In this document: piece by piece, positions 46,501 through 64,000 of the stretch
How positions within the stretch are numbered: position 1 is the first letter of the stretch
Layout: every line of letters starts with the position of its first letter
Origin: a virus
Taxonomy: Duplodnaviria > Caudoviricetes
Direction: 5' to 3' (one strand)
Virus record (IMG/VR): IMGVR_UViG_3300029305_011823
DNA: 64,000 nucleotides
Translations under genes and position numbers: made by a program
Notes under the pieces: generated by a model
What the model was told of the DNA's origin: nothing
What the model saw: the letters and a program-made list of their open reading frames with translations, nothing else
Database searches by the model: none

Positions 46501-48546
46501 GATATAAGTAATATGATTATTCCTGATACTGCTGTATTAACCGACCTTTTCTTAAATATAACAAAACTTGCAAACATAGGTATGATTTACTGTGATTTCA
46601 AATCAGTAGAAAAAATAGCTTCATTAGTACCAACAACTAACCCTACAACAATATGGGTAGGAAACCACATAGACATCAACGGACTACCACAGTACGACCA
46701 CATCACGTACAAAGTGTATGAAGTCGAAGATAAGTTGGAAGTTGAGCTGTCAAGCCCACTGTTAGAAGGCGACAGACTTGAAATTATTGATGGTGACTTA
46801 TATCATTATCATAAGATGGGAATAATTACTTACGATGGTAGTGACGATGAAGCACATTGGTCATATGGTTTGATTGAAAATGGATGGGAACAAGATGAAA
46901 ATTATCATGCATTTTATAATTATTATACATATAATAAGTATTCATTGTGGGAAAAACTAATTACAAAAAATAGTATTATTTATTGTGAAAATCTTTCAAC
47001 ATACGGATATAATTATTTAAATAGTACACAAGTATCTGTAGATGGTATACGTACAGAAGGTGTTAGTATAGGCTGGCATAATGTTAATGGTTATGATTAT
47101 CATTATATGACTATAAGAATACACAAAGATAAATTAACAACAATTGATTCAGCTGGATTCAAAACATGGCTTAAAGCTAACCCAATCACAATCGTATACG
47201 AAAGAGCAAACCCTTACTATGAATTAGTAAAACCTAACGTAGGTCTTTTAAATGCAGAACAAGGACTTTATTTAAATATTTTAGATTCTGTCGTTCCTGT
47301 TGTTAATCACCAAGACCTTTGTACTTTAAAACTTAACTATTTGCTTCCTAATGTAGAATATAAAGTTAAATTTAAAGCTAATATTCCAGGTTCAATTGCT
47401 ATTAATCTAGGAGGTACTTTAGTTCCTTTAGATGTAGTAGAAGGATGGAATGAAGTAATGGTTACTACACCAGAAACTTTAGTAGATGAATACTTAAAAG
47501 TAAATGGTTCTGAAGGTATAAAAATACAAAATGTTATGGTAATAGATAGTAATAAAGACTTTGATTATTTTAAAGGTATGAATAATACGTTTGATGAAAT
47601 TCCTGTTAAGAATATATGTACTAATAGAACTTTAACATATACTCATGGAGTAGATGAAGAAGGAGTAAGTCCACAAGGGGAAATGGCTGTAAATGTCAAT
47701 AAAGGTAAAGTAGTAACAGTGGTAGGAAAAGTAAGTAATAATCCAGATAATTTACCAATAAGTATTAATTTATATAATGATACAGGTAGAGCTACTGGTA
47801 AGAACTTATTTGATGGTAAATTTATTGAAGATAAAATAATAAACACTACAGATGGTGCAGCATTACAATTAAATCATGTACGAGGGGGCTATTGTACAGA
47901 TTTTATCGAAATTGATAATACTAAACATTTAACAATAACAGGATTCTGTTGTGATGGTATTGTTTATAGTTGTATATTCATGTATGATAAAGATAAAAAA
48001 TACATCGGTCGTACGTCTGGTAATGCTGTTGGTGAAGGTTTGAGACGTATTTTACCTACAGACGGTATTGATTCCGTACCTGGAGTTGATCATACTAATA
48101 TAACTAGAAATAAATTCCCAAATAATTGTAAATATATAAGATTCTCAAATTATTTTACATCTAGTATGAATGACCAATCAACACAATATTTATTAGACAA
48201 CTCTACACAATTACAAATAGAGAGTCATAATGGAAAAACTGAATATGAGCCTTTCAGAAATTATTGTAATGATGAACCTATATTTATAAACCCTGATGAA
48301 AATGGTAACTTTGCTATACAAATAAAAGCAGATCGTGATTATGCTAATAGAATAGGATTTAATGTTGGAGATGCTTTTGCTTGTGAAGCTAATGACCAAG
48401 TAACTATAACAGACCTTATGGTATTCGAAGGAGATATTATTGACTGTCATCCTACAACTTATGTAGATCCAGCAGATACTAGATATCTTGTTGAATATAA
48501 ATCATTCGGAAATCCATTTGGTTTTGGTAAAAATAAATTAATATAA
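37597..48546 (+). CDS. giant BspA/DUF285-type LRR protein 2, 3649 aa
   Basis: Six linker+LRR modules; C-terminus paralogous to protein 1 (LSSPLLEGD, KTWLKANPITIVYE, TGKNLFD); late promoter at 37524-37535. Confidence 0.85.
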   Translation: MSIIAKYKFDKSIYENLIPEFNEGYTGYTISDEIDSENSNHVIRTISHDNMKPTLMRFGQVWQEGAVLGGARYESLLEIISLDTSALTNMHSMFRSCFNVYRINTDGWDTRNVTEMRQTFTRCYSLTSIDVSNIHVTGVLYAYFSQCINLTEIIGLDTWDTSNVTNMEHMFHNCYNLTSLDLSNWDVSNVANMFYMFSYCNNLTTIGDVSNWNTSKVTDMSQMFFNCQSLTSLDMSNWNTGKVTNVHQMFHNCHAIKSVGNIRNFITNKSTTMKGLFENCYALKDIDTSNWDVSNVDTMEYAFEECQSLTTLDLSDWNIKSTCVTVAMLTSCGVKTIYMYNSDYASVNRIIEQLPQVDNAELYIGGIDSLGSVNLSGARAKNWSVINKYKVAKYKFDKSIYENLIPEFNEGYTGYTISDEIDSENSNHVIRTILGNSLPTSMIFGVMNPNPVEDKHKCLLDVAYVNIDNIVNMHSMFRYCINLLSINTSNWNTAHVTNMHDLFHSCRSLTSLDVSNFDTSNVKNMGYMFVSCYRLTSLDVSNWDVSKVTDMNNLFYDCNKLTSLDVSNWDTSSATVMGGMFRDCNALTSLDVSNFDTSKVTDMSYMFYDCYSLTSLDVSKWDTSNLTDIEYMFNNCNRLTSLDVSNWDTRNLQKASLAFYNCKRLAVIDVSRWKMNAILSCYRMFDACSGISKVDISNWELTYSSAHLYSLCSNTNITQFEFPDRTQKVRYIHHIFNNCVNLEVINFKDWDIYASESTTSDIEKYDIFGINIDNNKTVPPIKKIISNNLSTIKILANNQALPDKTGEVEPGYIVTTLRDQIDEETLAALTAKNWVVKDLVAQYKYDANTYENLLPEFNTEFTSDKYEIHDSISEGVITYNDVTAWHEDEINLNSNLITCLSNTTYHFIKGFGTIRWYDSNKNYIDVSLFTDGAYMTSPINARYMMIVYNKENGKNSFELVSKLVTRSIESKNGDLPTLMRFGHNGDSTDDQATYTGPATALLKVFAANTSELTTGERMFRYCKRVEEIRCSNWNTSNMTDMGSMFATASDYLTELDVSNLDVSNVHNISTMFWGCFKLTSLDVSNWDTSNVINMYGVFTAAYNLNNIIGIEDWDTSSVKVMNYMFSYCYILQSLDLSKWNVNNVTNMEMMFYDCTSLELLNLSNWDMSQVIYMNNMINNCNELNSIIMYNSNAVSINIIINQLPTRTEASKGALVIAGVDDRTLVNINVAESKFWIVKSRLVAKYKFNKSIYDNLIPNMGTDFTSYTVIDKVNPYNVNHITRMLVSDFAPQIMKFGTDGDDYTKAKAKALMEVIHVHMDNLRWCYNMFRGCQYATAINMKNVNTDLMTNMSCMFSMCYNITTLDVSSFNTSQITDMQYVFDDCNKLTEIKGLENWDVSNVTNFRAMFENCRVLTSLSDIYDWNVGKAESMTLMFQNCYKLTSLDLNNWDTGNVTTMDNMFCDCNKLTSLDVSNFDTSKVTRMDHMFEKCQSLTSLDVSNFNTINVTKMNSMFVNCNKLTSLDVSGFNTSKVTDMEYMFQYCESLTSLDVSNFDTSNVITMACMFMFCYSLTSLDVRNWDTSNVTNMGRVFEACGQLVNLDISRWNTGNVTNMVSLFANCYKLTSLDVSNFNTSKVTNMSSMFEDAGSTNNNNGLSVLNLSNFNFSKVTNAMWMLNGTDGQLKIKELNLNNLDLATISDIRDFIDSDYSNSIQNPRIISNNLNTINLLADMLPNRSTITTSGQIVTTIRDQIDEETMAALTAKNWIVKGSVAQYVYDANTYEDLIPEFNPEFTEDMYEVHDSVSEIVIDDIQWEPGGISETAGTDHNGINEEYPDRVRSGYLTVIPNIEYKFNVPYVHVYWYNENKQFISYDGMYGTNGGTTMKGNSCVAPIKAKYLRIGRGAGPYTMSITAKLVTRSIESKNGDLPTLMRFGTDSWDIVTDKSKSLLKIVDLSSNSLIIMTYMFNKCIRLTNVNTTNWDVSNVTYMYSMFFGCTNLTSLDVSNWDTSNVTNMGDLFTACQSLKSLDVSGWDTSKVTNMYQMFGDCINLTSLDVSNFDTSEVTSMNHMFNNCKSLTSLDVSNFDTSKITNMAYMFYNCTSLTSLDLSNFNTSNVTVMNHMFAECKKLTSLDVSNFNTSNVTDMGCMFKECNALTTVGNLSNWNTASVSYMNYMFYDCRKLASLEGIGGWNTAKVLGTFGMFYQCAVITSLDVAGWNTSNINTMGAMFQGCSSLSSLDVSHWNVAKVENMNGLFHACKALTTLDVSKWNTARLNKISREPGEFNEHISIFSDCINLTSLDLSNWNMSNVTNTRYMFYNCNNLTSLDVSKWDVSKVTDMAQMFSECKLLTSLDVSKWDVSKVTDMNNMFYNCQSLTSLDVLEWDTSSLRDITSLFYACSNLKSLDVSHWNVDNCGSVLGDITYSMRNTFNDTGLRVLNLSKWSKIEWLYDTLEDGRICNNFINSTVLKTIDFGNCVIPYYPVNWLKAPNLRYIKCDNGNSVSNLIEQVPTRTEAEPGYIITTAEISDDHKGLFNAKYWNIVKLDEVGTDIAIYKFNKSVYKSLVPVFDNNFADWFMDDVVEDEVNAPNIVTRTIRSMGGLPTKMIFGVSSSLGAYEDRSLSLLEVHKLNTSNITTMGQMFKRCTGVTMINTADWDVSNVTNMNELFFECAKITSLDVSNWDTRKVNNMSSIFIHCFKLQNIIGLNNWNTSNAQTMQWMFQDCQSLKSIDVSNWDTRKVNNMGSMFRYAISLESLDLSSFDTRAVTSMNCMFAGIDYGNYNPMSLTSITFGENWNTSNVQNFANMFYGCQSLTSLDVSKWDTSKATNIAGMFWDCRSLTSLDVSNFNTSKVTRTQGTFRNCRALEYIDVSKWNTSKVTDMQNMFYGCHSLISLDVSNFDTSIITEFDGMFAYCNKLRYLILGNWDTSNVKDMGTMFANNSGVRELDLSSWTCSAVTKGMGYMFRSCINLEYLDISNMIIPDTAVLTDLFLNITKLANIGMIYCDFKSVEKIASLVPTTNPTTIWVGNHIDINGLPQYDHITYKVYEVEDKLEVELSSPLLEGDRLEIIDGDLYHYHKMGIITYDGSDDEAHWSYGLIENGWEQDENYHAFYNYYTYNKYSLWEKLITKNSIIYCENLSTYGYNYLNSTQVSVDGIRTEGVSIGWHNVNGYDYHYMTIRIHKDKLTTIDSAGFKTWLKANPITIVYERANPYYELVKPNVGLLNAEQGLYLNILDSVVPVVNHQDLCTLKLNYLLPNVEYKVKFKANIPGSIAINLGGTLVPLDVVEGWNEVMVTTPETLVDEYLKVNGSEGIKIQNVMVIDSNKDFDYFKGMNNTFDEIPVKNICTNRTLTYTHGVDEEGVSPQGEMAVNVNKGKVVTVVGKVSNNPDNLPISINLYNDTGRATGKNLFDGKFIEDKIINTTDGAALQLNHVRGGYCTDFIEIDNTKHLTITGFCCDGIVYSCIFMYDKDKKYIGRTSGNAVGEGLRRILPTDGIDSVPGVDHTNITRNKFPNNCKYIRFSNYFTSSMNDQSTQYLLDNSTQLQIESHNGKTEYEPFRNYCNDEPIFINPDENGNFAIQIKADRDYANRIGFNVGDAFACEANDQVTITDLMVFEGDIIDCHPTTYVDPADTRYLVEYKSFGNPFGFGKNKLI

Positions 48547-48651: not shown

Positions 48652-49887
48652 ATGTCAATGGTAGATAAGGAGAAACTTGCTAGATTGGCTCATGCATTAG
48701 ATGATAGAGCTGATGAAAAAGTTGCTAATGAGGCACAAAGGGCTGCTCAAGCAGAAGCAGATATACAAGCACATAGTGATGCTACTAGAGAAATGCTTGG
48801 TGGAAAATCACTTAAATATTTAACACAAGCAGAGTATGATGTTTTATCAGAAGAAGAAAAGAAGAATGAAAATGTTATTTATTATATAACTGACCTTGAA
48901 GATAGAACTCATGATCATTATAACAAAGAAGTTTTAGATTTAATAGATGATGAGTTTATAAAAAATATAGGTAAAGGTCAATTATTAGAAATAGTTATAC
49001 CAGCAGAAGCTGGTTGGTATAGAGTAGCTTCTATGGAAGGTACTGGAGCTGGTCTTATAGACGTTCAATGTGGTCATGGTGAATATATCGTTATGATAGG
49101 ACATGGAGAAAACCATGAACCTAATATGATGCAATTAGGAATGTGTTCGTTAGGAGGACGTAGAAATAGCAAAATAAGAATGGTTCACCATAAAGAAACA
49201 GAAGAAGCTCATTTAGAACTTCATTATGAAGAAGGAGCTGAAGACATTAATGTAAAACTACAAATATTAGGTGAATCTGATTGGAGATTATCAGAACCAG
49301 TTAAAACTGAAGCTGTCGATGAAGCTTTATATCTTATAAGAGAAATGGTATTAGTTCCTGGAAAAATTGTTGGGGACTTCAGTGGTGTAATAGAACAAGC
49401 TAACAAACTAGCAGCACCTGTTCAAGTTATAATCGGTGATGTTCGTAGAGAATTTGATGGAACTGCAGATATATCTTTCTCATTAAATGAAATAGGAGCT
49501 GCTCCAAGGGAAAGTGAAGTTTTAACTACAGAAAACAAAGTGGTTATAGATGCAATAAATGAATTAGATGCTGATTTAGGAGTTGTTGAAGAAGCATTAG
49601 GTGGATATAAAATATGGGTTGGAAATACAGAACAATTAAATGCTATAGTAGAAAGAGACCCAATGACTTTATATTTTGAAATAAGTGATAGTGTAGCTTA
49701 TACTGAAATAAATCCTGAAGTAGAAGCAGCTGGTATAGCTACTACTGAAATATATGATGAAATGATACCTGCTTACGACCCAGTAGCAGAAGTAGAACAA
49801 GATGTTATATTAACATCACCTATGGGATTCAAATTTAAATTAAGAGTAGATGATTTCGGTAATCTATTCACAGAACCTGTAGAATAA
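48652..49887 (+). CDS. tail fibre-like protein
   Basis: LTQAEYDVL...YYIT, GWYRVA, ANKLAAP...FDGTADI...IGAAP, LTTENKVVIDAINEL and LTSPMGFKFKLRVDDFGNL phage fibre motifs; late promoter at 48599-48610. Confidence 0.75.
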   Translation: MSMVDKEKLARLAHALDDRADEKVANEAQRAAQAEADIQAHSDATREMLGGKSLKYLTQAEYDVLSEEEKKNENVIYYITDLEDRTHDHYNKEVLDLIDDEFIKNIGKGQLLEIVIPAEAGWYRVASMEGTGAGLIDVQCGHGEYIVMIGHGENHEPNMMQLGMCSLGGRRNSKIRMVHHKETEEAHLELHYEEGAEDINVKLQILGESDWRLSEPVKTEAVDEALYLIREMVLVPGKIVGDFSGVIEQANKLAAPVQVIIGDVRREFDGTADISFSLNEIGAAPRESEVLTTENKVVIDAINELDADLGVVEEALGGYKIWVGNTEQLNAIVERDPMTLYFEISDSVAYTEINPEVEAAGIATTEIYDEMIPAYDPVAEVEQDVILTSPMGFKFKLRVDDFGNLFTEPVE

Positions 49888-49980
49888 TAACAACAAAACA
49901 ATGAAATAATAAATTTAACATATGGAGTAAATAAATTCATTTACTCCATATTAATTATATAAAGGAGTGTGAATATTAAA

Positions 49981-52900
49981 ATGGCTGATATAGCAAAATA
50001 TAAATTTAATAGTGATACTGATGTTTTACCTATATTCGGTGATATTAATTTCGAATACACTTATACAGATGAAATAGGTAGCGATGGTACTATTACAAGA
50101 ACAATAGTTGCTAACAGTTCTCCTAATAGTATAAAATTCACTGAAAAAACGGGATTAATTTCAGTTGAATTTATAGATATGACTGAAATAACAAGTTGTG
50201 CTGAAATGTTTAAAGATTGTATCAACCTAACATATGTTGATTTTAATAGTGTTAATACTAGCAAAGTAACTGACATGAGAAGTATGTTTGAAGGTTGTAG
50301 TGGATTTTTATCAATAGATTTATCAGGATTAAATACTGGGAATGTATTAGATATGACAAATATGTTTAGAGGATGTAGTAATGTGTTCTCTATAGATACA
50401 AGCATGATAAATGTGAGTAAAGCAACAAGTTTAAATAGTATGTTCCAAGGATGTGCTAATATTACAGGTATAAGTTTACAAGGTTGGAATTTATCTAATG
50501 TTGTAAATATGGGTTGGATGTTTGACGGTTGTACTAACTTATTATCTGTAATTTTAAAAGGTGTTAATATACCTAATTCAGCTACAATAACAGATATGTT
50601 TAAAGATTGTATAATTTTAAATAACGTAAACATGGATAATTGTAGTGTAGAAGATATTAATAAAATGATGAGAGTTCTACCTGAAAGAACTGATGGAAGA
50701 GATTATAAATTAAAAACAAATTTAGCTGATGTGAGTGGAATAAATACTGAAGACTTAGAAGCTAAAGGTTGGAGATTAGCAACTTATGAAATAGTTCTTA
50801 GATATAAATTTGATAAAAGTATATATGCTAATTTAATACCAGAATTTAATAGTAATTTTATAGATTATGTGGTAATAGATGAAGTAGTTGAAGGGAATAT
50901 AGTAACTAGAGCTATAGGTCATGAGAATTTAAAACCTACAAAAATTTATTTTGGTAGCCCTTATACAGAATTAAATTCACAATTCCCAAAATCTAATTCA
51001 TTGTTATCAATTGAACATTTAGATCCTAGTAATCTTTATGATGTAAGAGGTATGTTTAGATATTGTAGAAATTTAACTTCAATAGATGTAACTAATTGGG
51101 TTACTACAAAAATTACAAGTTTATGGGATATGTTCTCTTTATGTACAAATTTACAAGAAATAATAGGGCTTGAAACATGGGATACTAGTAATGTTGATAG
51201 TTTAAACGCAACATTCCATGGTTGTAATAATCTATCATACATAGGAGATATATCTGGTTGGCAAACTGGAAAAGTACATGACATGGCTTACTTATTTAGT
51301 GCATGTTATAATTTAACTTCAATAGATATAAGTAACTGGGACACTAGTATTGTAACTACAATGTATTATATGTTTAACTCGTGTCGTTCTTTAGTATCAT
51401 TAAACGTACAAGGAATAGATGTTGGTAACGTAAATAATATGGCTAATATGTTTAGTCAATGTAATAAATTAACTACAATAGATGTAAGTGGTTGGGATAC
51501 TAAAAATGTAACTAATATGAGTTTTATGTTCTCAAAATCTATTGCTTTAATACAAATTATCGGAATAGAAAATTTCATTACTAGTAAAGTAACTAATATG
51601 CAAGATGTATTCGGAGGTTGTCTTGCTTTAAGATCATTAAATTTAAGTAATTGGGATGTTAGTAAAGTAACTCACTTTAATGGGACATTCAATGATTGTA
51701 ATAGTCTTACAGAATTAAATGTTAGTAGCTGGGTAACAACTAGTGCACAATATATGCAAGCAATGTTCTTTGGTTGTCATAATTTACTTTCATTAGATTT
51801 AAGTAACTTTGTTACTACTAATGTATTAGATATGACTCAAATGTTTGATAGATGTTGGGTTATTACAGAAATAAAAGGACTTGAAAATTGGAACGTTGGT
51901 AAAGTAACTAGTATGAGATATTTATTCTCAGCTTGTCATAAAGTAACCGAATTGAATGTTAGTAATTGGAATGTTGAAAAAGTAACAAATATGGAATATA
52001 TGTTCTACTGCTGTGAACGATTGACGTTATTAGATTTAAATAATTGGAATCCTACTAGGGTCCAAAATATGTCTAATATGTTTAAATTTTCTTCTGGATT
52101 ACAATCAATAAGTTCATCTAACTGGAATACTGATAGTTTAACAACTATAAATAGCATTTGTTATGGTTGCAATAATTTAACTACATTAGATGTAAGTAAT
52201 TGGAATACTAGTAAAGTGAATGATATGAATAGTGCTTTCCACCAATGTTATAATTTAACTACATTAGATGTAAGTAATTGGGATACTAGTAATGTAACTA
52301 ATATGAATAGTCTTTTCTCAGAATGTAATAAAGTAAATGGATTAGATGTAAGTAATTGGGACGTTAGTAAAGTTGAGCATTTATCAGGTATATTTAAAGA
52401 TTGCTATAAATTATCTTCATTAGATGTAAGTAGATGGAATACTAGCAGTGCTATAAGAACACACATGCTATTCTATGGATGTAACTCTTTACAATCATTA
52501 GATGTAAGTAATTTTAATACTAGTAAGGCTAGTTTAATGAGAGGAATGTTTGGAAGTCTTCAATCAATAACAATGTTAGATTTATCTAGTATAGATACTT
52601 CATCAGTTACTAATGATACATTTGCTGATTATATGTATAGTATGTATAATCTTAAAACACTTATTTTAGGAGAAAAATCTTTAGCTAAGCATATAGATAC
52701 TTGGGATGAAACGTTTGATTATGAACATCAAATTACACCATTCCCAGTGTTAGAAAGATTAGTATGTCCTGATGAAGAAACTATAGAAAGAATATCTAAA
52801 TACTTACCAGATCGTTCTACAGCTGTAAACCCTGGTGTTATAGTAACAAATGCTACAATATCAGATGAAGCAATGAATACTATCTCTGGTAAAAACTGGT

Positions 52901-55900
52901 CTTTAAGAAAAATGGTTGCTCAATATAAATTTGACGCTGTTACTTATGAGAACTTAATACCTGAGTTCAATGCTGAGTTTACTGAATCTGATTATGTGAT
53001 TACTGACAGTGTAAGTGAATCTGTTATAGATAATATACAATGGATTGATGGTTATGCATTAACTGCAGATACTGGTGCACTTACTAATGATGATGAATCG
53101 CATGTATCTGATTTTATCGTAATTCAACCAAATGTTGCTTATAGAGTAAATCAACCAACATATGTTTATTGGTATGATGAAAATAAAGCATTCATAAATA
53201 ATGATTATGTGAGTGAAGAAGATTATAATGCAGGAAATGATAATATGGTATCTCCTGTAAATGCTAGATATGTAAGATTTACTCAATACAGTTATAGAGA
53301 AGGATTAGAAGTTGAAAGTAAAGTAGTAACTAGAACTATTGAAAGTGTAGCTGGTAAATTACCTACATTTATGAGATTTGGTGGTGTTACTGATCTTGTA
53401 GACGTATTCGATAGACCGTATAGTTTACTAGAAATATGCAATTTAAATACTGAAAATATAAATTCTATGCACTCTATGTTCCATTATTGTAAAAGATTGA
53501 CTAAAGTAAATAGTATAAATTGGAATACCAATAAAGTAACTAATATGTTTGATATGTTTAGTGAATGTCATTCATTATCTTCATTAGATGCAAGTAAATG
53601 GAATACTGGTAATGTAACTACTATGAGTCACATGTTCCATAAATGTCATTCAATATCTTCGATAGGAGACGTAAGTAATTGGAATACTGGTAAAGTAACT
53701 ACTATGTATTCTATGTTCAATAGTTGTTATTTATTAACTTCATTAGATGTAAGTAAATGGAATACTAGTAATGTAACTGATATGAGTAATATGTTTAGAT
53801 CTATGGTATCAATTACAACTTTAGATATAAGTAACTGGGACACTAGTAAAGTAACTAATATGGCTTATATGTTTGCTAATTGTAAATCATTAACTTCATT
53901 AGATGTAAGCAATTTTGATACTAGTAATGTAACTAATATGAATTTTATGTTCTATAATTGTAATAAATTAACTTCATTAGATGTGAGTAGATGGGTTACT
54001 AGTAATGTAAATGATATGCAAGGTGTGTTCCATAGTTGTAAATTATTAACTTCATTAGATGTAAGTAACTGGGATACTGGTAATGTAACTAGTATGTTTG
54101 AATTGTTCCAAAATTGTAATAATTTAACTTCATTAGATGTAAGTAATTGGGATACTAGTAATGTAACTGATATGAAGTATATGTTCAGATGTTGTTATAA
54201 TTTAACTTCATTAGATGTAAATAATTGGGATACTAGTAAAGTAACTGATATGGGTTATATGTTTGACGGATGTCATTCATTAACTTCATTAGATGTAAGT
54301 AATTGGGATACTGGTAATGTAGAATATATGGGTTATATGTTCAATGCTACAGATGGATATTCAATGAGTTTAACTTCATTAGATCTAAGTAAATGGGATA
54401 CTAGTAAAGTAACTAGTATGCCTAATATGTTTGAACAATGTGACAGTATAGAAAGACTTAATCTAAGTAATTGGGATACTAGTAAAGTATATATTATGCA
54501 ATATTTATTTAGTTATTGTAGATCATTAACTTCATTAGATATAAGTAATTGGAGTTTAGCTAATGTAAATTCAATGCCAGGTATGTTTTTAAATACTGAT
54601 AATTTAAGACTTATAAAATGTGATAATCCAGCTACAGTGAATATTATAGCTCAATACCTTATGGATAGAACTTCACAAGAAAAAGCTGGTATGATAGTAA
54701 TAGACGACACTGAAGGATTAGATACTACTGCACTTACTGCTAAAAACTGGACTGTTGTTCCTACATCAGCTCAACATATAGTTGCTGAGTATAAATTCAA
54801 TAAAGACTTAGCAGATTTAATGCCTGAATTAAATCCTGAGTTTGATGCTTATTTCGTTTATGATGAATATAACGATACTGAAGCAATTGAGACAACTGGA
54901 TATGAAACTATGATGTTATTTAATGCTGATAGTGAACCTGATGAGGACGGAGTAATAACTGCAGAAACTGAAGTAGAAGTTGTGAATACTGTGGAAGCTG
55001 GTAATATAGTTACTAGAAAAATAGTAAGTTATGGTGATGATTTACCTACATTGATGAGATTTGGTGGTTTAGGTGATAGTGCTGTTGAATATAATAGAGC
55101 AAAATCTCTAATAAGAATAGAACAACTAGACACTACAGGATTAACTACTATGCATCATATGTTTAGAATGTGTGAAAATGTAGTATATATTAATAATAAC
55201 AATTGGAATATTACTAATGTAACTACTATGCAAGGTGCTTTTTTAGGTTGCTATAATTTAACTTCATTAGATGTAAGTAATTGGGATACTAGTAGTGCAA
55301 CTGTTATGGGTGGTATGTTCCGTGATTGTAATGCATTAACTTCATTGGATGTAAGTAATTTTGATACTAGTAAAGTAACTGATATGAGTTATATGTTCTA
55401 TGACTGTTATTCATTAACTTCATTAGATGTAAGTAATTTTAATACTAGTAATGTAACTACTATGAATCGTATGTTCTATAAATGTAGTAATTTAACTTCA
55501 TTAGATTTAAGTAATTTTGATACTAGTAAAATAACTAATATGGCTTATATGTTCAATGCTTGTTATAATTTAACTTCATTAGATGTAAGTAAATGGCAAA
55601 CAGGAAGTCTAATATATATGAATAGTATGTTCAATGCTTGTCATAATTTAACTTCATTAGACTTAAGCAACTGGAATGTTAGTAATGTAACTGATATGCA
55701 AGGTGCATTTGGTGGTTGTAAATTATTAACTACATTAGGTGATATCAGTAATTGGAATGTTGGTAAAGTAACTAATGTATATGATATGTTTGGATATTGT
55801 AAGAGCCTAGTATCATTAGACTTAAGTAATTGGAATACTGACAGTTTAACTAATATGAGTCATTTTATATATGGTGCAGACAAACTAGAAGAAATATATT

Positions 55901-58900
55901 TAAGTGACTGGAATGTTAGTAAAGTATGGACTATGTTTAACGCATTTATGGACTGTTATAAATTAGCTACAATAGACGTAAGTAGTTGGGTTACTACTAA
56001 ATTAGAAAATACACAAGCTATGTTTGCAAAATGTAGTTCTTTAACATCATTAAATTTAAGCAACTGGGATGTTAGTAAAGTAACTAATATGTCAAATATG
56101 TTCAACAATTGTACTGCATTAACAACAGTGGGTGATTTAAGTGGATGGACTACTACTAACTTAGCAAACTTAGACAGAACATTTACAAATTGTAAAGCAT
56201 TAACTTCATTAGATATAAACAACTGGAATACTAGTAAAGTAACTCAGATGCAATATTTATTCAGTAATTGTGAAAGTTTAACTTCATTGAATTTAAATAA
56301 ATGGGATACTAGTAAAGTAACTGATATGACAGCAATGTTCCGTAATTGTTATTTATTGTCATCACTTGATATTAGTAACTTTAATACAATTAATGTTATG
56401 AGCTTGAGCTATATGTTCCATCAATGTAAATCACTAACATCGCTAAATGTAAGTAGTTTTGATACTTCTAATGTCAATAGAATGTATGCTACGTTCTGGG
56501 ACTGTCGATCATTAACTTCATTAGATGTAAGTAATTTTGATAATAGCAAAGTAACTGATATGGGAAGCTTTGTAGGTTCTTGTATAGCATTGAAATCACT
56601 TAACTTAGGTAATGTGGTTATCAATTCTTCTAATATAAACGATAATAGATTATTGCTAAATAACACAGATCTAGAAGAGTTATATGTTAATGATAAAGGA
56701 ACGTTAGATTACATATTACCGTTCTTACCTAATAGAACTGAAAAAGCTGTTGGTAAAATAGTTACTTCAATAAGAAGTCAAATACCACAAGAAACTCTTG
56801 CAGTTTTAACATCTAAAAACTGGGTAATTTATGATGTAGTTGCTCAATACTTATACGATTCTTCTCGTTATGCAAACTTATTACCTGAGTTCAATGCAGA
56901 GTATACTTCAGATAAATACGTTGTTACTGATGTTGACCGTAGTCAATCATTAAAAGTTACTAGATGGGAAGCTGGTATATTAGATGCGAATGGAGCAAAT
57001 ACTACAAGTACTGATTATCCAAATGCTATGAGAAGTGATTTTATAAAAATAAGAGCTGCTAAGTACACATTCAATATAGACTATTGTCAAGTATATTGGT
57101 ATGATGAAAATAAAAACTTAGTTGCTAATAGTGGTGTATATGGAACTAATAGTGGAATACAAAACGGAAAGGTATGTGAAGCACCTATAGGAGCTAGATA
57201 TTTAAGAATATATAGAGCTGTAGGTAAAACTGATTGTAGTATAGATTGTAGTTTAATAGAAAGAACTATTGAAAGTGTAAATGGTGAGTTACCAACTAAG
57301 ATGTCATTTGGTATAGCTGATGGTGATGATCGTTCACGAGCATTAATAGAATTAATACAAGCGAATGTTTCCGAACTTACTACAATGATTGCAATGTTTG
57401 ACACATGTGATCGTATGAGTTTTTGTAATACTGCAAATTGGGATACTAGTAAAGTAACTGACATGGCATGTATATTCTCAGCTTGTAATAATTTAACTTC
57501 ATTAGATGTAAGTAATTGGGATGTTAGTAACGTAACTGATATGAGACTTATGTTCTGTAGATGTTATATTTTATCTTCATTAGATGTAAGTAAATGGGAT
57601 ACTAGAAATGTAACTGATATGTATGCTATGTTCTATAATTGTAATAATTTAACTTCATTAGATGTAAGTAATTTTGATACTAGTAAAGTAACTAATATGA
57701 ATAGTATGTTCTATAATTGTAATAATTTAACTTCATTAGATGTAAGTAATTGGAATACTGAAAGCTTGTCAGGTACTGGAGCACAATATTTATTCTATGG
57801 ATGTAGTAATTTAACTTCATTGGATTTAAGTAATTGGAAAGTTGATAATCTAACATCATTCCATTGTATGTTCCACGGTTGCTCAAAATTATCAACTATA
57901 GGTAACGCGGGTAATTGGAAAACTGGTAAGTCACAATCTTTTGAGCAAATGTTCAATGGATGTGGTATATCATCATTAGATGTGTCTAATTGGACTACTG
58001 ATTACGTATTTAATATGTACGCAATGTTCCATGGATGCTCTAATTTGGCTACAATAAAAGGAATAGGTAAATGGAACGTGTCAAGAACTCATTCGCTACA
58101 TAATATGTTTACAAACTGTAGTTCATTATTATCATTAGATTTAAGTAATTGGAATCCAGCAGCAACTAATTTATTTGGATTTTTATATGGTTGTAATAAA
58201 TTAGTATCGCTTGATATAACTAATTGGGATATGTCAAATGTGAATAATTTTAATAGTTTTACATATAATTGCAGTGCTTTAAAATATGTTAAATGTAATA
58301 CTGTTAATAGTATAAATAAATTAATGGGAAAAGGTTTACCAACAAGACCAGCAAATGACTCAGGTTTAATAATCTGTAATGCAGATACTACAAACCTAGA
58401 TGTCGCAGCGTTAAATGCTAAAAACTGGAGAATTGCTACTGCAACTGATATAGTAACTGTTGCTCAATACAAATTCGATAAGTCTATATGTGAAGACTTT
58501 ATGCCTTATTTTAACGATGGTGCTAATTATCCTGTATTTGTAAGAGATGAAGTGGATGGAAATATTGTTACTAGAACGTTAGAAATAGTAAATGGTATGG
58601 AATTACCTAATGAGGTTACTTTTGGAATTAAAAGTACTAATGCTGATGACCGCACTAATAGGGAACAATCTTTATATGAAGTATTGTATGTAAATACAAA
58701 AAATATAAATAATATGCAATATATGTTCAATTATTGTCAATATTTGACTACAGTTAATACTGATGGATGGGATACTAGTAAAGTAATTAATATGAAATAT
58801 ATGTTTAGAGCTTGTAATCTATTAACTTCATTAGATGTAAGTAATTTTGATACTAAAAATGTAGGTAATATGCAAGGTATGTTTACTGCATGTAAAGTAA

Positions 58901-61900
58901 TAAATACATTAGATGTAAGTAAATGGGATACTAGTAATGTAACTAGAATGGATTCTATGTTCCGTGATTGTACTGATTTAACTACAATAAATCTAAGTAA
59001 TTTTAATACTGGTAAAGTAACTACTATGGATAGTATGTTCTATGGTTGTAGTAATTTATCATTATTAAACGTAAGTAATTTTAATACTGGTAAAGTAACT
59101 AATATGATTAATATGTTCTATAGTTGTAGTAATTTATCATCATTAGATTTAAGTAATTGGGATACTAGTAAAGTAGATAATATGGCTTATATGTTCAAAA
59201 ATTGTAATAAATTAACTTCATTAGATGTAAGTAAATTTAATACTAGTAATGTAATTAATATGTATTGTATGTTCGATTATTGTGAATCATTAACATCATT
59301 AGATGTAAGTAATTGGGATACTAGTAAAGTAATTAATATGAAATATATGTTTAGAGCTTGTAATCTATTAACTTCATTAGATGTAAGTAATTGGAATACT
59401 AGTAATGTAACTAGTATGGCTAATATGTTCTGTAATTGTAATAATTTAACTTCATTAGATGTAAGTGGTTTTGATACTAGTAAAGTGACTAGTTTGCATA
59501 GTATGTTCTGGGGTTGTCATAAATTAACAACAATAGATGTAAGTAATTGGGATACTAGTAATGTAACTAGTTTCTATGCTTTATTCCACCAATGTTATGT
59601 AATGACAACGCTAGATGTAAGTAACTTTGATACTAGTAAAGCAACAGAATTACATTTCTTTGCTTCATATAATGGTGCAACAATAATGAATCTTAATAAT
59701 ATAAAATTCAGAGAAGCTGATTATAGTATATTAGTATCAACAAAAGTTGAAAAAATGTATTTAAATAGTTTAGAAACATTAAATAAAGTATTGGAATATC
59801 TACCAGACAGAACAGGAAAAGAATCAGGTAAACTTGTTACTTCATTAAGAAACAAAATACCAGAAGAAACACTTGCAGCTTTAACTGCTAAAAACTGGGA
59901 AATAGTTGACATAGTTGCTCAGTACAGATTCGACGCTAACAAATATGAAAACTTATTACCTGAGTTCAATGCTGAGTTTACTGCTGATAAGTATAGAGTA
60001 ATAGATGATGTTCATGAGTATGTTGTTGATGATATACAATGGAAAATCGGTTATATAAATATGCAGGGTGAATTACATTCATCTACAGATACTATGATAA
60101 GTAGTTATATACCATGTGAAAATGCAGCAGTATATGTATTCGATACACCTATTAATGTTCATTGGTTTGATGGTGATAAAAAATATATTGGTATAAGTCA
60201 AAATTCAAATAACACATATCCTAGAGCAATACCAAAACCAATTAGTGCTAAATATTTCATAGTAAGTAGATTTATAACAACAGGAGAGGCTTTAAATATT
60301 TCATATAAACTAGTAAATAGAACTATAGAAAGTGTAAATGGAGATTTACCTACATTAATGAGATTTGGATTACACGCAAATTATGCATATACTCAATACA
60401 CAGATAGAGAAACGTCTTTATTGGAAGTTTATGCGTTAAATACAAATGAAATAACAAATATGTCTCAAATGTTTAGACAATGTAGAAATTTAGCACATAT
60501 TAGAACATCTGAAATAGATACTAGTAAAGTAACTGATATGCAATTTATGTTCCAAACATGTATGAAATTAAAATATGTTGATGTAAGTAATTGGGATACT
60601 AGTAAAGTAACTACTATGGATAATTTATTCCAAGATTGTCAATCGATAACTTCATTAGATGTAAGTAATTGGAATACTAGTAATGTAACTATAATGCAAA
60701 GTACGTTTGGTAGTTGTAAAAAATTAACTTCAATAGATGTAAGTGGATGGGATACTAGTAAAGTAACTAATATGCACAATATGTTTGGAATATGTCAATC
60801 ATTAACTTCATTAGATTTAAGTAATTTCGATACTAGTAAAGTAAATGATATGAATAATATGTTCTATAATTGTCAATCATTAACTTCATTAGATGTAAGT
60901 GGATGGGATACTAGTAGTTTAAGAGATATGGGTAATATGTTTAAAGATTGTAAAAAATTAACTTCAATAGATATAACTGGTTTTGATACTAGTAAAGTAA
61001 CTAATATGCATGCTATGTTTGCTTTCTGTGATTCATTAATAAACCTTAATATAAGTAATTTTAAATATGATAGTATAGATACAAGTGATTATATGAATTC
61101 AAGTAGTATGATCTCAAGTAATGGTGATACAAAATTAGTTTCATTAAATTTACCAAAAGCAGATTTACCTGATAGTATAGTTGGAATTATACTTAACAGA
61201 AATGGGCTTAAATATGTTAAATGTGAAAACAAAAATAACATTACTAAGATAATTTCACATCTTCCAGCAAGAACATCAGCAGACCCAGGTAAGATAATAA
61301 CTAAAGTTCCTATGTCACAATTTACTGAACTTGAAATACAAGCATTAGCTGATAAAAACTGGACTATAAGTAATGAAGCTTTACAAGTAGTTGCTAAGTA
61401 TAGATTTGCTAAAGATCTTTACAGAAGTTTAATACCTGCATTTAACTCAGGTTTCACAACTAATTACTTTGTAGATGATGAATATTTGAATACTGAAGAT
61501 TTAACTGATATGTATGGAAAAGATTATAACCAAGGATACACTATAACTGCAGAAAACATAGTTACTAGAACTATAAGTGTTCTTGAAGAGGAAGTATTAC
61601 CAACTAGAATTACATTCGGTACGAGTTGGTTTACTAATAGTACCTTAGTTGATGAAAGACCTAAAGCTATATCTTTACTAGAATCAATAGAAATTAATAC
61701 AAATAATTTATCAAGTATGGCTTATATGTATAGATTATGCTACAATGTTAAAAATATAAGTACTGAAGGCTGGGATACTAGTAAAGTAGTTGATATGAAA
61801 TGTGCATTTGCTAATTGTTATAATTTATTATCGATAGATGTAAGTAATTTCGATACTAGTAATGTATTGAATATGTATAGTATGTTCTATATTAATAGAA

Positions 61901-64000
61901 ACTTAGGTGGTAATCTTGACGTATCTAATTGGGATACTAGAAATGTAACTAATATGGAATTTATGTTCCAAAGTTGTGAGAAATTAACTTCATTAGATGT
62001 AAGTAATTTTGATACTAGTAATGTAACTAGAATGGATTACATGTTCTATAAATGTAATAATTTAACTTCATTAGATGTAAGTAATTTTGATACTAGTAAA
62101 GTGTTTGATATGCAATATATGTTTAATGGTTGTAATAATTTAACTTCATTAGATGTAAGTGGTTTTGATACTAGCAATGTAACTAATATGAATAATATGT
62201 TCTGTAATTGTAAATCATTAACTTCATTAGATGTAAGTAATTTCGATACTAGTAAAGTAACTACTATGAGTGGTATGTTCTTTGGTTGTAAATTATTAAC
62301 TTCATTAGATGTAAGTAATTTCGATACTGGCAATGTAACTAATATGAGTGGTATGTTCTATGATTGTAATCAGTTAACTTCATTGGATGTAAGCAATTGG
62401 AATACTAGTAATGTAACTAATATGTATGCATTATTCCAATTCTGCACACATTTAACTTCATTAGATTTAAGTAATTTTGATACTAGTAAAGTAACTAATA
62501 TTGGTATTATGTTTAACTCTTTACGTTTTATAGAAAATATAGATTTAAGTAATTGGGATACTAGTAATGTAACTAGTATGTGGAAATCATTATGTGGTTG
62601 TGCTGTTAAAAATCTAAATCTTAATAATATTATTATTTCACCATTAACTGATATTGATGGAATATTAGAAAGTGTTGACAGATTAGAAAAAATCTACATC
62701 AATATTCCTGAAACAGTGGATAGAATAGTTTCTCATCTTCCAGATAGAAGCTTAACAACTACTGGACGTATAATAATGCCTAATAAAGACCAAGTATCTG
62801 CAGAAACAGTTGCTTTATTGGCTGGTAAAAACTGGCACCTTGGAAACTTAATTGCTTCTTATAAATACGACAGTAATATTTGTGAGGACTTAATACCAGT
62901 GTTCAATGATGGATTTGGTACAGATAAATACGTTGTTGTGGATACAAATGATAGTCATAAGATAATAACAAGAAATATAGAAGATGTTGATGGTACAATG
63001 CCTACAATGGTTAGATTCGGTACTAATGTAAGTGGTGGTGCTGTAACTGATGCAACTAGTTCTCTACTTGAATTATTAGATATGAATACTCAAGAAATAA
63101 CATTCATGGAGGATATGTTTAGATCTTGTGTAAACTTAAAAGCTGTAAATACTAAACATTGGAACACAAGTAAAGTAACTGTAATCGGAAGTTTATTCTG
63201 TAAATGTGAAGTGTTAACTACAATAGATGTTAGTATGTTCGATACTAGTAATGTAGTTGATATGGAAAGAGTATTCGGATACTGTTACGACTTAGAGACA
63301 ATCATCGGTCTTGAAAAATGGGATACAAGTAAAGTAACTAATATGTATTATTTATTCTATCAATGTAATAAATTACGAAGTGTAGATTTAAGTAATATTG
63401 ATACTAGAAATATAGATAATTTAGCACAAACATTTGCTGCTTGCCATGCATTAACAAAATTAGATTTAAGTAATTTTGATACTAGTAAGGTAATCATTTT
63501 TAATAAAACATTCAATGCTTGTCGTGGATTAATAGAATTAGATTTAAGTAACTGGAATGCTGATAATGTAAATAATAGTGAATACTTCATTAACAATTGT
63601 CCAGAATTAACAACTGTAACAGTAAACACACTTTCAATGATGAACGTAGTTACAAATAGGTTGCCAGATAGAACTGGAAAAGAAGCAGGTACTGTTGTTT
63701 ATTATGGAATAGATGAAGCGGATATAGATACAGAAACATTACAAGCTAAAAACTGGAATTTAAGCTATGAACCAATATTAGCTAAATACATCTTCGATAG
63801 CAATGTATATGAAAACTTCTTACCAAAATTCAATGGTGAGTACTTAAGTGTAAACTATAAAGTTATAGATGATGTAAAAGCTGATGGTAGAGTAGTAAGA
63901 ACATTAAAATATGATAATGATAAGAGACCTACTTGGATACGTCTTGGTGATTATGATTCTACAAATGACGAATTACGTAAACAAGCATTATTGGATGTAT
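49981..64000 (+). CDS. giant BspA/DUF285-type LRR protein 3, >4673 aa, runs off the window (absent from ORF track)
   Basis: ATG at 49981 (MADIAKYKFNSD) after an AAAGGAG RBS; reading in frame shows ten linker domains with LRR blocks; the ORF track lists no + strand ORF here, consistent with no stop before the window end; late promoter at 49897-49908. Confidence 0.85.
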   Translation, partial: MADIAKYKFNSDTDVLPIFGDINFEYTYTDEIGSDGTITRTIVANSSPNSIKFTEKTGLISVEFIDMTEITSCAEMFKDCINLTYVDFNSVNTSKVTDMRSMFEGCSGFLSIDLSGLNTGNVLDMTNMFRGCSNVFSIDTSMINVSKATSLNSMFQGCANITGISLQGWNLSNVVNMGWMFDGCTNLLSVILKGVNIPNSATITDMFKDCIILNNVNMDNCSVEDINKMMRVLPERTDGRDYKLKTNLADVSGINTEDLEAKGWRLATYEIVLRYKFDKSIYANLIPEFNSNFIDYVVIDEVVEGNIVTRAIGHENLKPTKIYFGSPYTELNSQFPKSNSLLSIEHLDPSNLYDVRGMFRYCRNLTSIDVTNWVTTKITSLWDMFSLCTNLQEIIGLETWDTSNVDSLNATFHGCNNLSYIGDISGWQTGKVHDMAYLFSACYNLTSIDISNWDTSIVTTMYYMFNSCRSLVSLNVQGIDVGNVNNMANMFSQCNKLTTIDVSGWDTKNVTNMSFMFSKSIALIQIIGIENFITSKVTNMQDVFGGCLALRSLNLSNWDVSKVTHFNGTFNDCNSLTELNVSSWVTTSAQYMQAMFFGCHNLLSLDLSNFVTTNVLDMTQMFDRCWVITEIKGLENWNVGKVTSMRYLFSACHKVTELNVSNWNVEKVTNMEYMFYCCERLTLLDLNNWNPTRVQNMSNMFKFSSGLQSISSSNWNTDSLTTINSICYGCNNLTTLDVSNWNTSKVNDMNSAFHQCYNLTTLDVSNWDTSNVTNMNSLFSECNKVNGLDVSNWDVSKVEHLSGIFKDCYKLSSLDVSRWNTSSAIRTHMLFYGCNSLQSLDVSNFNTSKASLMRGMFGSLQSITMLDLSSIDTSSVTNDTFADYMYSMYNLKTLILGEKSLAKHIDTWDETFDYEHQITPFPVLERLVCPDEETIERISKYLPDRSTAVNPGVIVTNATISDEAMNTISGKNWSLRKMVAQYKFDAVTYENLIPEFNAEFTESDYVITDSVSESVIDNIQWIDGYALTADTGALTNDDESHVSDFIVIQPNVAYRVNQPTYVYWYDENKAFINNDYVSEEDYNAGNDNMVSPVNARYVRFTQYSYREGLEVESKVVTRTIESVAGKLPTFMRFGGVTDLVDVFDRPYSLLEICNLNTENINSMHSMFHYCKRLTKVNSINWNTNKVTNMFDMFSECHSLSSLDASKWNTGNVTTMSHMFHKCHSISSIGDVSNWNTGKVTTMYSMFNSCYLLTSLDVSKWNTSNVTDMSNMFRSMVSITTLDISNWDTSKVTNMAYMFANCKSLTSLDVSNFDTSNVTNMNFMFYNCNKLTSLDVSRWVTSNVNDMQGVFHSCKLLTSLDVSNWDTGNVTSMFELFQNCNNLTSLDVSNWDTSNVTDMKYMFRCCYNLTSLDVNNWDTSKVTDMGYMFDGCHSLTSLDVSNWDTGNVEYMGYMFNATDGYSMSLTSLDLSKWDTSKVTSMPNMFEQCDSIERLNLSNWDTSKVYIMQYLFSYCRSLTSLDISNWSLANVNSMPGMFLNTDNLRLIKCDNPATVNIIAQYLMDRTSQEKAGMIVIDDTEGLDTTALTAKNWTVVPTSAQHIVAEYKFNKDLADLMPELNPEFDAYFVYDEYNDTEAIETTGYETMMLFNADSEPDEDGVITAETEVEVVNTVEAGNIVTRKIVSYGDDLPTLMRFGGLGDSAVEYNRAKSLIRIEQLDTTGLTTMHHMFRMCENVVYINNNNWNITNVTTMQGAFLGCYNLTSLDVSNWDTSSATVMGGMFRDCNALTSLDVSNFDTSKVTDMSYMFYDCYSLTSLDVSNFNTSNVTTMNRMFYKCSNLTSLDLSNFDTSKITNMAYMFNACYNLTSLDVSKWQTGSLIYMNSMFNACHNLTSLDLSNWNVSNVTDMQGAFGGCKLLTTLGDISNWNVGKVTNVYDMFGYCKSLVSLDLSNWNTDSLTNMSHFIYGADKLEEIYLSDWNVSKVWTMFNAFMDCYKLATIDVSSWVTTKLENTQAMFAKCSSLTSLNLSNWDVSKVTNMSNMFNNCTALTTVGDLSGWTTTNLANLDRTFTNCKALTSLDINNWNTSKVTQMQYLFSNCESLTSLNLNKWDTSKVTDMTAMFRNCYLLSSLDISNFNTINVMSLSYMFHQCKSLTSLNVSSFDTSNVNRMYATFWDCRSLTSLDVSNFDNSKVTDMGSFVGSCIALKSLNLGNVVINSSNINDNRLLLNNTDLEELYVNDKGTLDYILPFLPNRTEKAVGKIVTSIRSQIPQETLAVLTSKNWVIYDVVAQYLYDSSRYANLLPEFNAEYTSDKYVVTDVDRSQSLKVTRWEAGILDANGANTTSTDYPNAMRSDFIKIRAAKYTFNIDYCQVYWYDENKNLVANSGVYGTNSGIQNGKVCEAPIGARYLRIYRAVGKTDCSIDCSLIERTIESVNGELPTKMSFGIADGDDRSRALIELIQANVSELTTMIAMFDTCDRMSFCNTANWDTSKVTDMACIFSACNNLTSLDVSNWDVSNVTDMRLMFCRCYILSSLDVSKWDTRNVTDMYAMFYNCNNLTSLDVSNFDTSKVTNMNSMFYNCNNLTSLDVSNWNTESLSGTGAQYLFYGCSNLTSLDLSNWKVDNLTSFHCMFHGCSKLSTIGNAGNWKTGKSQSFEQMFNGCGISSLDVSNWTTDYVFNMYAMFHGCSNLATIKGIGKWNVSRTHSLHNMFTNCSSLLSLDLSNWNPAATNLFGFLYGCNKLVSLDITNWDMSNVNNFNSFTYNCSALKYVKCNTVNSINKLMGKGLPTRPANDSGLIICNADTTNLDVAALNAKNWRIATATDIVTVAQYKFDKSICEDFMPYFNDGANYPVFVRDEVDGNIVTRTLEIVNGMELPNEVTFGIKSTNADDRTNREQSLYEVLYVNTKNINNMQYMFNYCQYLTTVNTDGWDTSKVINMKYMFRACNLLTSLDVSNFDTKNVGNMQGMFTACKVINTLDVSKWDTSNVTRMDSMFRDCTDLTTINLSNFNTGKVTTMDSMFYGCSNLSLLNVSNFNTGKVTNMINMFYSCSNLSSLDLSNWDTSKVDNMAYMFKNCNKLTSLDVSKFNTSNVINMYCMFDYCESLTSLDVSNWDTSKVINMKYMFRACNLLTSLDVSNWNTSNVTSMANMFCNCNNLTSLDVSGFDTSKVTSLHSMFWGCHKLTTIDVSNWDTSNVTSFYALFHQCYVMTTLDVSNFDTSKATELHFFASYNGATIMNLNNIKFREADYSILVSTKVEKMYLNSLETLNKVLEYLPDRTGKESGKLVTSLRNKIPEETLAALTAKNWEIVDIVAQYRFDANKYENLLPEFNAEFTADKYRVIDDVHEYVVDDIQWKIGYINMQGELHSSTDTMISSYIPCENAAVYVFDTPINVHWFDGDKKYIGISQNSNNTYPRAIPKPISAKYFIVSRFITTGEALNISYKLVNRTIESVNGDLPTLMRFGLHANYAYTQYTDRETSLLEVYALNTNEITNMSQMFRQCRNLAHIRTSEIDTSKVTDMQFMFQTCMKLKYVDVSNWDTSKVTTMDNLFQDCQSITSLDVSNWNTSNVTIMQSTFGSCKKLTSIDVSGWDTSKVTNMHNMFGICQSLTSLDLSNFDTSKVNDMNNMFYNCQSLTSLDVSGWDTSSLRDMGNMFKDCKKLTSIDITGFDTSKVTNMHAMFAFCDSLINLNISNFKYDSIDTSDYMNSSSMISSNGDTKLVSLNLPKADLPDSIVGIILNRNGLKYVKCENKNNITKIISHLPARTSADPGKIITKVPMSQFTELEIQALADKNWTISNEALQVVAKYRFAKDLYRSLIPAFNSGFTTNYFVDDEYLNTEDLTDMYGKDYNQGYTITAENIVTRTISVLEEEVLPTRITFGTSWFTNSTLVDERPKAISLLESIEINTNNLSSMAYMYRLCYNVKNISTEGWDTSKVVDMKCAFANCYNLLSIDVSNFDTSNVLNMYSMFYINRNLGGNLDVSNWDTRNVTNMEFMFQSCEKLTSLDVSNFDTSNVTRMDYMFYKCNNLTSLDVSNFDTSKVFDMQYMFNGCNNLTSLDVSGFDTSNVTNMNNMFCNCKSLTSLDVSNFDTSKVTTMSGMFFGCKLLTSLDVSNFDTGNVTNMSGMFYDCNQLTSLDVSNWNTSNVTNMYALFQFCTHLTSLDLSNFDTSKVTNIGIMFNSLRFIENIDLSNWDTSNVTSMWKSLCGCAVKNLNLNNIIISPLTDIDGILESVDRLEKIYINIPETVDRIVSHLPDRSLTTTGRIIMPNKDQVSAETVALLAGKNWHLGNLIASYKYDSNICEDLIPVFNDGFGTDKYVVVDTNDSHKIITRNIEDVDGTMPTMVRFGTNVSGGAVTDATSSLLELLDMNTQEITFMEDMFRSCVNLKAVNTKHWNTSKVTVIGSLFCKCEVLTTIDVSMFDTSNVVDMERVFGYCYDLETIIGLEKWDTSKVTNMYYLFYQCNKLRSVDLSNIDTRNIDNLAQTFAACHALTKLDLSNFDTSKVIIFNKTFNACRGLIELDLSNWNADNVNNSEYFINNCPELTTVTVNTLSMMNVVTNRLPDRTGKEAGTVVYYGIDEADIDTETLQAKNWNLSYEPILAKYIFDSNVYENFLPKFNGEYLSVNYKVIDDVKADGRVVRTLKYDNDKRPTWIRLGDYDSTNDELRKQALLDV

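Follow-up and report, generated by a model that had tools for sequence, protein, structure and literature searches.

Three giant genes, g1, g2 and g3, occupy much of a 64,000-nucleotide (nt) stretch of a gut phage genome (IMG/VR record IMGVR_UViG_3300029305_011823; this whole stretch is referred to below as the window) and encode paralogous proteins made of leucine-rich repeat (LRR) units. Across near-identical assemblies of this phage, a short tract of g3 occurs in two forms, one of which is identical to a tract of g2, and we read this polymorphism, with a probability of about 0.8, as a recent, sporadic and non-reciprocal gene conversion from g2 into g3. The replaced tract spans a minimum of 118 nt (55295-55412) and a maximum of 179 nt (55258-55436). 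An initial annotation, made from the sequence of the window alone, had described this part of g3 as a mosaic of cassettes found also in g1 and g2, and had proposed that cassettes are exchanged between the paralogues through a constant scaffold. The genes and segments concerned are the following:

24959-37504, plus strand: g1, an open reading frame (ORF) of 4181 amino acids (aa), PARCEL/DUF285, with 77 detected 26-aa units; Pfam DUF285 in 33 matched stretches, and LRR_5
37597-48546, plus strand: g2, the donor paralogue, a PARCEL ORF of 3649 aa; TIGR02167 in 50 matched stretches
49969-63999 and beyond the window end, plus strand: g3, the recipient paralogue, a PARCEL ORF; TIGR02167 in 76 matched stretches
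55258-55436, plus strand: converted tract of g3 at its maximum extent, identical at 179 of 179 positions to g2 39277-39455
39277-39455, plus strand: donor tract of g2, two units and 23 nt of scaffold, invariant across assemblies
55414-55506, plus strand: unit of g3 held in common with g1, identical at 92 of 93 positions to 29324-29416, with the mismatch at 55469
29324-29416, plus strand: counterpart of this unit in g1 (92 of 93 positions matching g3 55414-55506)
55508-55554, plus strand: exact match of 47 of 47 nt to g2 43832-43878, at chance level

We extracted 216 repeat units from g1-g3, each of 78 nt (26 aa), in which a near-constant scaffold of about 45 nt is combined with seven hypervariable codons. 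Column statistics over the 216 units gave the scaffold consensus LTSLDVSN[WF][DN]TS[NK]VT.M..MF..C.. and placed the hypervariable codons at positions 16, 18, 19, 22, 23, 25 and 26. Matches between units were then judged against a null in which the scaffold of each unit was kept and the hypervariable codons alone were shuffled among units (300 shuffles). Under this null, exact matches of at least 45 nt were close to expectation (26.5 expected, 32 observed), and those of at least 60 nt were in large excess (0.05 expected; 3 observed, of 179, 159 and 79 nt). In the 300 shuffles no match exceeded 67 nt, compared with the observed 179 nt, which is the longest exact repeat in the 39 kb of LRR genes. 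Moreover, 4 of the 23,220 possible pairs of units differ by at most 1 nt, where none is expected; one of these is a tandem duplicate in g1 and the other three involve g3 units that follow one another (55258, 55336 and 55414). After these, the closest pairs are 5 nt apart.

The 179-nt identity between g2 and g3, which takes in two variable segments as well as the scaffold variant TTG (Leu4), is confirmed at its coordinates, and the 93-nt match between g1 and g3, with its single mismatch, is also an outlier beyond chance. The 47-nt match to g2, which had been presented as a further cassette, is correct in position and identity but cannot be told from a chance match of the scaffold, since matches of at least 45 nt occur near the null expectation; the full units behind it differ at 8 of 78 positions. 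Scaffold constraint, raised in the initial annotation as a possible trivial source of the matches, thus fits the 47-nt segment and is exceeded by the 179-nt and 93-nt segments.

Two alleles of the g3 tract

To find other assemblies of this locus we used exact-protein look-ups with four anchors (the 411-aa protein encoded between g2 and g3, g2 itself, a 199-aa protein upstream of g1, and the downstream fibre gene), and read the alleles from assembled metagenome contigs of many samples. The 411-aa anchor yielded loci L007-L014, and the P0121 look-up yielded assemblies spanning the right side of the tract. These assemblies are near-identical to the window over 17-31 kb. Across g2, the 411-aa gene and the covered stretch of g3 they show 0-3 scattered differences outside the tract, save where L008 begins and save for a 234-nt indel in g1, and the 35 substitutions that distinguish the two alleles cluster strictly in 55295-55412, inside the 179-nt tract.

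The allele that we call native is present in nine contigs among L008-L014, L016, L017, L030, L032 and L036, and partially in L033 and L034, representing eleven samples. The g2-like allele was found in four places. Besides the window, it is complete in the 238-kb JGI contig Ga0257089_10000120 (loci L007, L015 and L031; sample JGI 3300024303), which elsewhere differs from the window by 3 single-nucleotide polymorphisms (SNPs). It is also found in L018, a MEGAHIT k141 contig from an ENA sample (ERZ27248306) that is 100% identical to window 34487-55378, crosses the left junction and ends within the tract. The fourth place is the 5' end of L008 (JGI 3300018475), whose positions 1-330 pass from 75 nt of g3-specific left flank through the 179-nt tract into the right flank of g2; further along, the same contig carries the native g3 allele, and its 5' end is either a repeat-induced mis-join in a two-allele sample or a real crossover product.

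The two alleles are of equal length, in frame and free of insertions or deletions (indels), indicating replacement rather than insertion. Their differences involve all four bases, and 24 of the 35 changed nucleotides lie in hypervariable codons. Native g3 and g2 share just 37 nt on the left of the changed region (55258-55294) and 24 nt on its right (55413-55436), both scaffold, and the two junctions lie within these stretches, in the constant scaffold as had been noted. The strain comparison that the initial annotation had suggested thus finds the g2-like tract polymorphic among otherwise identical genomes, with the donor g2 unchanged.

In every assembly covering it, g2 39277-39455 is identical, and in a search within the window the best match to the native tract reached 82%, which equals the repeat background. 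Because g2 is invariant in the assemblies and the native tract has no other copy in the window, the transfer ran from g2 to g3; judged from these sequences, the native tract is ancestral, and g3 is the recipient of a tract donated by g2. The transfer was non-reciprocal, because g3 carries either tract while g2 stays constant.

In mechanistic terms, homologous recombination would have copied the two-unit tract of 118-179 nt from g2 39277-39455 into g3 55258-55436 without altering g2, either by ectopic gene conversion or by copy-choice template switching during phage replication. The exchange started and stopped in scaffold identity of merely 37 nt and 24 nt, and it swapped 20 residues, mostly at hypervariable positions that presumably contact a ligand. 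General recombination functions, of the phage or the host, acting on repeated DNA are the probable driver, in which case the exchange would be a by-product of the repeat architecture. Even sporadic, it could still reshuffle binding-surface cassettes among more than 200 units.

Several points weigh against the conversion from g2 into g3. Only two sequences, the window and one JGI contig, show the g2-like allele across its right junction, and many contigs break in or near the tract, which fits co-occurring alleles but also marks a region that is hard to assemble. Furthermore, the 24-nt homology on the right is short for RecA-type recombination, and a search of two related phage records detected no homologue of RecA/UvsX.

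Among the strain SNPs, which are too few for a test, those at 55625 and 55642 affect codons 19 and 25, both hypervariable, of a g3 unit (55570) that lies two units downstream of the converted tract. Exact-pattern scans of viral and metagenome contig collections for the cassettes found none, but these collections evidently lack the phage and are therefore uninformative. The IMG/VR relatives reached through the tail-tip protein and the C-terminal domain of g1 are 62-70% identical and are without these cassettes.

Other histories and older exchanges

The same alleles might have arisen in the reverse order, if the identity between g2 and g3 were the older state, left by a segmental duplication, and the native tract had been imported later from a diverged co-infecting phage or another unseen donor. 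Mosaicism between phages does exist at this locus: g1 is 57-70% identical in nucleotides to its orthologue in a second, related but diverged phage (G001), with one collinear run of orthologous units recognisable, and this background is interrupted by patches of 85-97% identity (g1 28205-28673, 33380-33769, 34927-35206 and 36691-37504, against gene 1 of G001), which suggests recombination between phages inside the LRR genes. In addition, the search for a donor of the native tract covered only the 64 kb of the window. Nevertheless, we consider this history unlikely. The g2-like haplotype is otherwise identical to the native L009 and L014 over about 20 kb, so that one of the two states must be very young, and every other pair of g2 and g3 units is at least 5 nt apart, which argues that the complete identity is the young state. 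The native allele is also the majority allele, being that of 11 samples, and an unseen donor inside the genome is improbable, as g3 ends 734 nt past the window and the DUF285 matches of G001 all lie in this locus.

The LRR genes are highly repetitive, and a short-read assembler could have threaded g3 along the g2 path at the scaffold, in which case the g2-like tract of g3 would not be real. Contigs do start or end at 55172, 55312, 55378, 55389, 55516, 55526, 55535, 55674 and 55768, the start of L008, running from the g3 left flank through the tract into the g2 right flank, resembles a repeat-induced mis-join, and another repeat is interrupted by a scaffold gap in L020. Breaks at the tract are, however, expected from mixed alleles, because the g2-like allele itself creates a 179-nt repeat, whereas native g3 and g2 have only 37 nt and 24 nt in common, too short for merging of the assembly graph at the final k-mer sizes. 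The contig L018 joins g3-specific flank to 121 nt of g2-type sequence, which requires reads spanning the junction, and the complete g2-like allele occurs in two assemblies that lie 3 SNPs apart elsewhere. Finally, the native allele was assembled in 11 other samples, by the JGI pipeline and MEGAHIT alike, which speaks against a systematic error. An artefact is therefore quite unlikely. Ends of other assemblies at 38773, at 58787-58830 and at 55172-55768 coincide with exact repeats of the window (126 nt, 79 nt and the 179-nt tract, respectively); exact repeats limit short-read assembly at the LRR locus.

Traces of other recombination events accompany the recent conversion. The g1-like unit of g3 (55414) is identical in all assemblies, and on that ground it reflects an older exchange of the same kind, which predates the transfer from g2 to g3. 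Single-unit matches, whose variable sites are identical or nearly so but whose neighbours are unrelated, join g1 29324 to g3 55414, g2 44632 to g3 60802, and g3 58744 to g3 59290, and such isolated matches mark older exchanges of single units. A further event was found in g1:

34235-34627, plus strand: tandem duplication of 234 nt (three units), seen as a 159-nt exact repeat (34235-34393 and 34469-34627)

One 234-nt copy is absent from L019, by a deletion through the 159-nt repeat, and L020 has a run of N there; this indel reflects polymorphic unequal recombination between repeats. The stretch 24959-34336 of g1 is identical in L020-L022. The ongoing exchange of cassettes between paralogues that had been proposed is thus real, recent and routed through the scaffold, as the polymorphic tract attests, but it is rare, amounting to one conversion and one indel.

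Scaffold uniformity and the question of programmed diversification

The units have a conserved hydrophobic scaffold and variable hydrophilic positions, the pattern by which PARCEL repeats are defined. The variable codons differ among units at all three codon positions. The scaffold codons are position-specific, and their uniformity is far above that predicted from codon bias:

Ser3 scaffold codon, TCA: 96% of units, background 26-31%
Ser7 scaffold codon, AGT: 92% of units, background 29-41%
Val6 scaffold codon, GTA: 94% of units, background 41-45%

The same scaffold codons dominate in G001 (95500-133000), where, however, units were picked by similarity to the window consensus and are thus biased towards these codons. 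Local homogenisation of the scaffold was considered and rejected, as similarity within blocks equals that between genes (about 0.18 mismatches per site), with no dependence on distance. Short conversion patches limited to the scaffold, or selection at the nucleotide level, could account for the codon uniformity. A search of the coding DNA for dyad symmetry gave only weak, imperfect inverted repeats, and a single unit folds as DNA no better than its shuffled versions do (z-score 0.2); a DNA hairpin or cruciform as the trigger of recombination was accordingly set aside.

As scaffold conservation extends to synonymous sites, and to a second phage, one could suppose that a near-invariant nucleotide scaffold is kept as built-in homology for recombination, with the giant genes forming a library of more than 200 cassettes for the binding surface that shuffles itself. 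If true, a virus would here possess a diversity system based on recombination, by which its population varies host recognition without a reverse transcriptase; we regard it as improbable.

Still less likely, and indeed very unlikely, is a library of more than 200 LRR cassettes shuffled often by dedicated machinery for host recognition, in the manner of the variable lymphocyte receptors (VLRs), pilE/pilS or vlsE. Its appeal lies in the architecture of constant scaffold and hypervariable codons, in the excess uniformity of synonymous scaffold sites seen at Ser3 and elsewhere, in the spacers between LRR blocks, which are 25-45% identical as protein, and in the adjoining of two exchange traces in one block. 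Frequent shuffling is, however, at odds with a count of one conversion (two alleles at one site) and one tandem indel over more than 14 assemblies and about 45 kb, with the lack of any exact repeat longer than 55 nt in the 37.5 kb of LRR genes of G001, and with orthologous units that are still collinear and recognisable between diverged phages. The secondary structure of the repeat DNA, as noted, is not significant.

The initial annotation had likened the locus to VLR assembly, and this analogy fails: the arrangement that it calls for, an incomplete expression gene between silent cassettes, is absent, and the locus has three complete ORFs with their own start regions and no silent or truncated cassettes. 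Nor do the helicase and nuclease genes of the window, offered there as possible machinery, single themselves out, as they belong to a general replication module, and a DnaB-like helicase is found also in a relative with a single LRR gene of 1369 aa. A dedicated recombinase was likewise rejected as a candidate, with no RecA and only sub-threshold AAA_24 matches in relatives.

The further claim, that the exchange proceeds without a diversity-generating retroelement (DGR), holds within the searched scope, as no reverse transcriptase was found and the changes are not specific to adenines. There were 0 RVT matches among 19 of the 20 non-LRR ORFs of at least 150 aa in the window, which was not searched in six frames, and a six-frame search found PF00078 absent from the related phage records G001 (97% complete) and G002. 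The alleles do not show the pattern of a DGR pair, in which template and variable repeat differ only at template adenines, as their differences involve all four bases.

The giant genes, their phage and known systems

The window is a 64-kb part of the genome of a giant gut phage of the jumbo class, whose full length is about 238 kb; a 238-kb contig is another assembly of the same phage, and related IMG/VR records measure 200-227 kb. The three LRR paralogues belong to its fibre locus. Its phage nature is evident from genes for a DnaB-like helicase, a PIF1-like helicase, a Cas4/PD-(D/E)XK nuclease, an Mre11-like phosphoesterase, an HNH endonuclease, an amidase endolysin, a collagen-like fibre protein and a virion structural protein. 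A tail tip domain protein sits between g2 and g3, and a gene for a fibre-like protein of 1394 aa with collagen repeats follows g3:

48652-49887, plus strand: 411-aa protein with a phage tail tip domain (Pfam Phage_tail_C), between g2 and g3

The stop codon of g3 is at window-equivalent position 64734, 734 nt past the window, giving a protein of 4921 aa; this 3' end was taken from L031, which matches window 54843-64000 at 100% identity. All three giant proteins score above the curated cut-offs of PF03382 or TIGR02167 (g1, DUF285, 1724 bits; g3, TIGR02167, 2377 bits; g2, TIGR02167, 1554 bits), and in none of them is a signal peptide or a lipobox evident. Each giant gene is a full-length ORF with its own start and an upstream purine-rich (AGGAG) stretch. 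Each protein is a chain of super-modules. Structure prediction for one spacer with its LRR block gave a confident solenoid for the LRR part only, the spacer being poorly predicted, and a sequence search of the PDB returned generic LRR matches only. The proteins encoded by g1-g3 may act as virion host-recognition proteins.

A leader of about 45 aa (AKYKFD..Y.N.IP.FN..Y....DE........RT) recurs where super-modules begin; its copies in g2, at 37609-37734 and 38770-38895, are identical over 126 nt, and it is present also at the N-terminus of g3 and at about 63700-64000 of the window. The giant genes look like chains of formerly separate BspA-like modules. In g2 of L012 and L013, from two samples, a 1-nt deletion at 39046 splits the product into 485 aa and 3151 aa, and intact g2 may be dispensable in some strains, or both assemblies may have an error in common. 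A 144,780-nt contig of ENA ERZ27248314, known from its gene table, encodes the identical 199-aa protein after the same upstream genes, but its LRR locus spans no more than about 4 kb, with products of 487, 114 and 695 aa, and genes for GH77, PIF1-like and DnaB-like proteins come immediately after it. Either this is a variant or relative from which about 35 kb of LRR genes are missing, or the contig is misassembled.

Among known systems of antigenic or receptor variation, Neisseria pilE/pilS, Borrelia vlsE, Mycoplasma genitalium MgPa and lamprey VLR each have one expression site served by silent or partial donors, operate at a high programmed frequency, and depend on dedicated or specialised factors. 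The exchange described here resembles them in that short variable segments are copied non-reciprocally, with junctions in conserved stretches. It differs from them in that silent donors, a programmed frequency and dedicated factors were none of them seen here.

LRR-bearing fibres are known from virions of jumbo phages, where Goslar gp161 and other DUF7941 proteins have been proposed to serve host recognition (bioRxiv 10.64898/2026.04.21.720040). Like these, the proteins of g1-g3 have LRR domains and come from a jumbo phage, and their genes lie between collagen-like fibre genes and the gene with the tail tip domain. These putative virion proteins are about ten times larger; no DUF7941 module was found in them, though none was looked for.

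A closer parallel in the mode of exchange is offered by the gp38 adhesins of T-even phages, in which hypervariable segments are set between conserved glycine-rich motifs and undergo modular shuffling (Trojet et al. 2011, PMC3157838); exchange through the conserved motifs is the accepted model for gp38 (PMC3157838), and the shuffling is attributed there also to Tetart et al. 1998, as cited in PMC3157838. In both cases a presumed host-recognition protein carries short conserved motifs that flank hypervariable segments and serve as sites of exchange. For gp38 the exchange takes place between different phages, whereas here it takes place between paralogues within one genome, in an LRR solenoid of hundreds of units for which a role in adsorption is only presumed.

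The repeat itself is familiar. PARCEL repeats and their variability have been described, with the speculation that variant ORFs could act as recombination reservoirs (Roske et al. 2010, PMC2996958), and a giant PARCEL gene of 19 kb is known in a jumbo phage, as ORF200 of Vibrio phage pir03 (PMC7765460). PARCEL/DUF285/TIGR02167 proteins have the same 26-residue repeat as g1-g3, with the conserved hydrophobic scaffold and the variable hydrophilic positions. The difference lies in the setting, here phage genes of 3649-4921 aa with many super-modules and no evident signal peptide or lipobox, and in the observation of conversion between paralogues as a population polymorphism, which is not reported in PMC2996958 or PMC7765460.

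No new mechanism is revealed by these data, and the event looks like ordinary sporadic gene conversion. What is new is the capture, at the population level, of a single conversion between paralogues with donor, recipient and junctions defined: a clean natural case of intragenomic gene conversion in a phage that is still polymorphic, with junction homologies of 24-37 nt. In changed nucleotides among near-identical strains, recombination in these giant PARCEL genes outweighs point mutation, as one event altered 35 nt, compared with 0-3 SNPs per 20-30 kb. By way of the scaffold, blocks of two units with their presumed binding residues can pass from one gene to another, which bears on the evolution of jumbo-phage host-recognition proteins, and on the trust to be placed in short-read assemblies of such loci.

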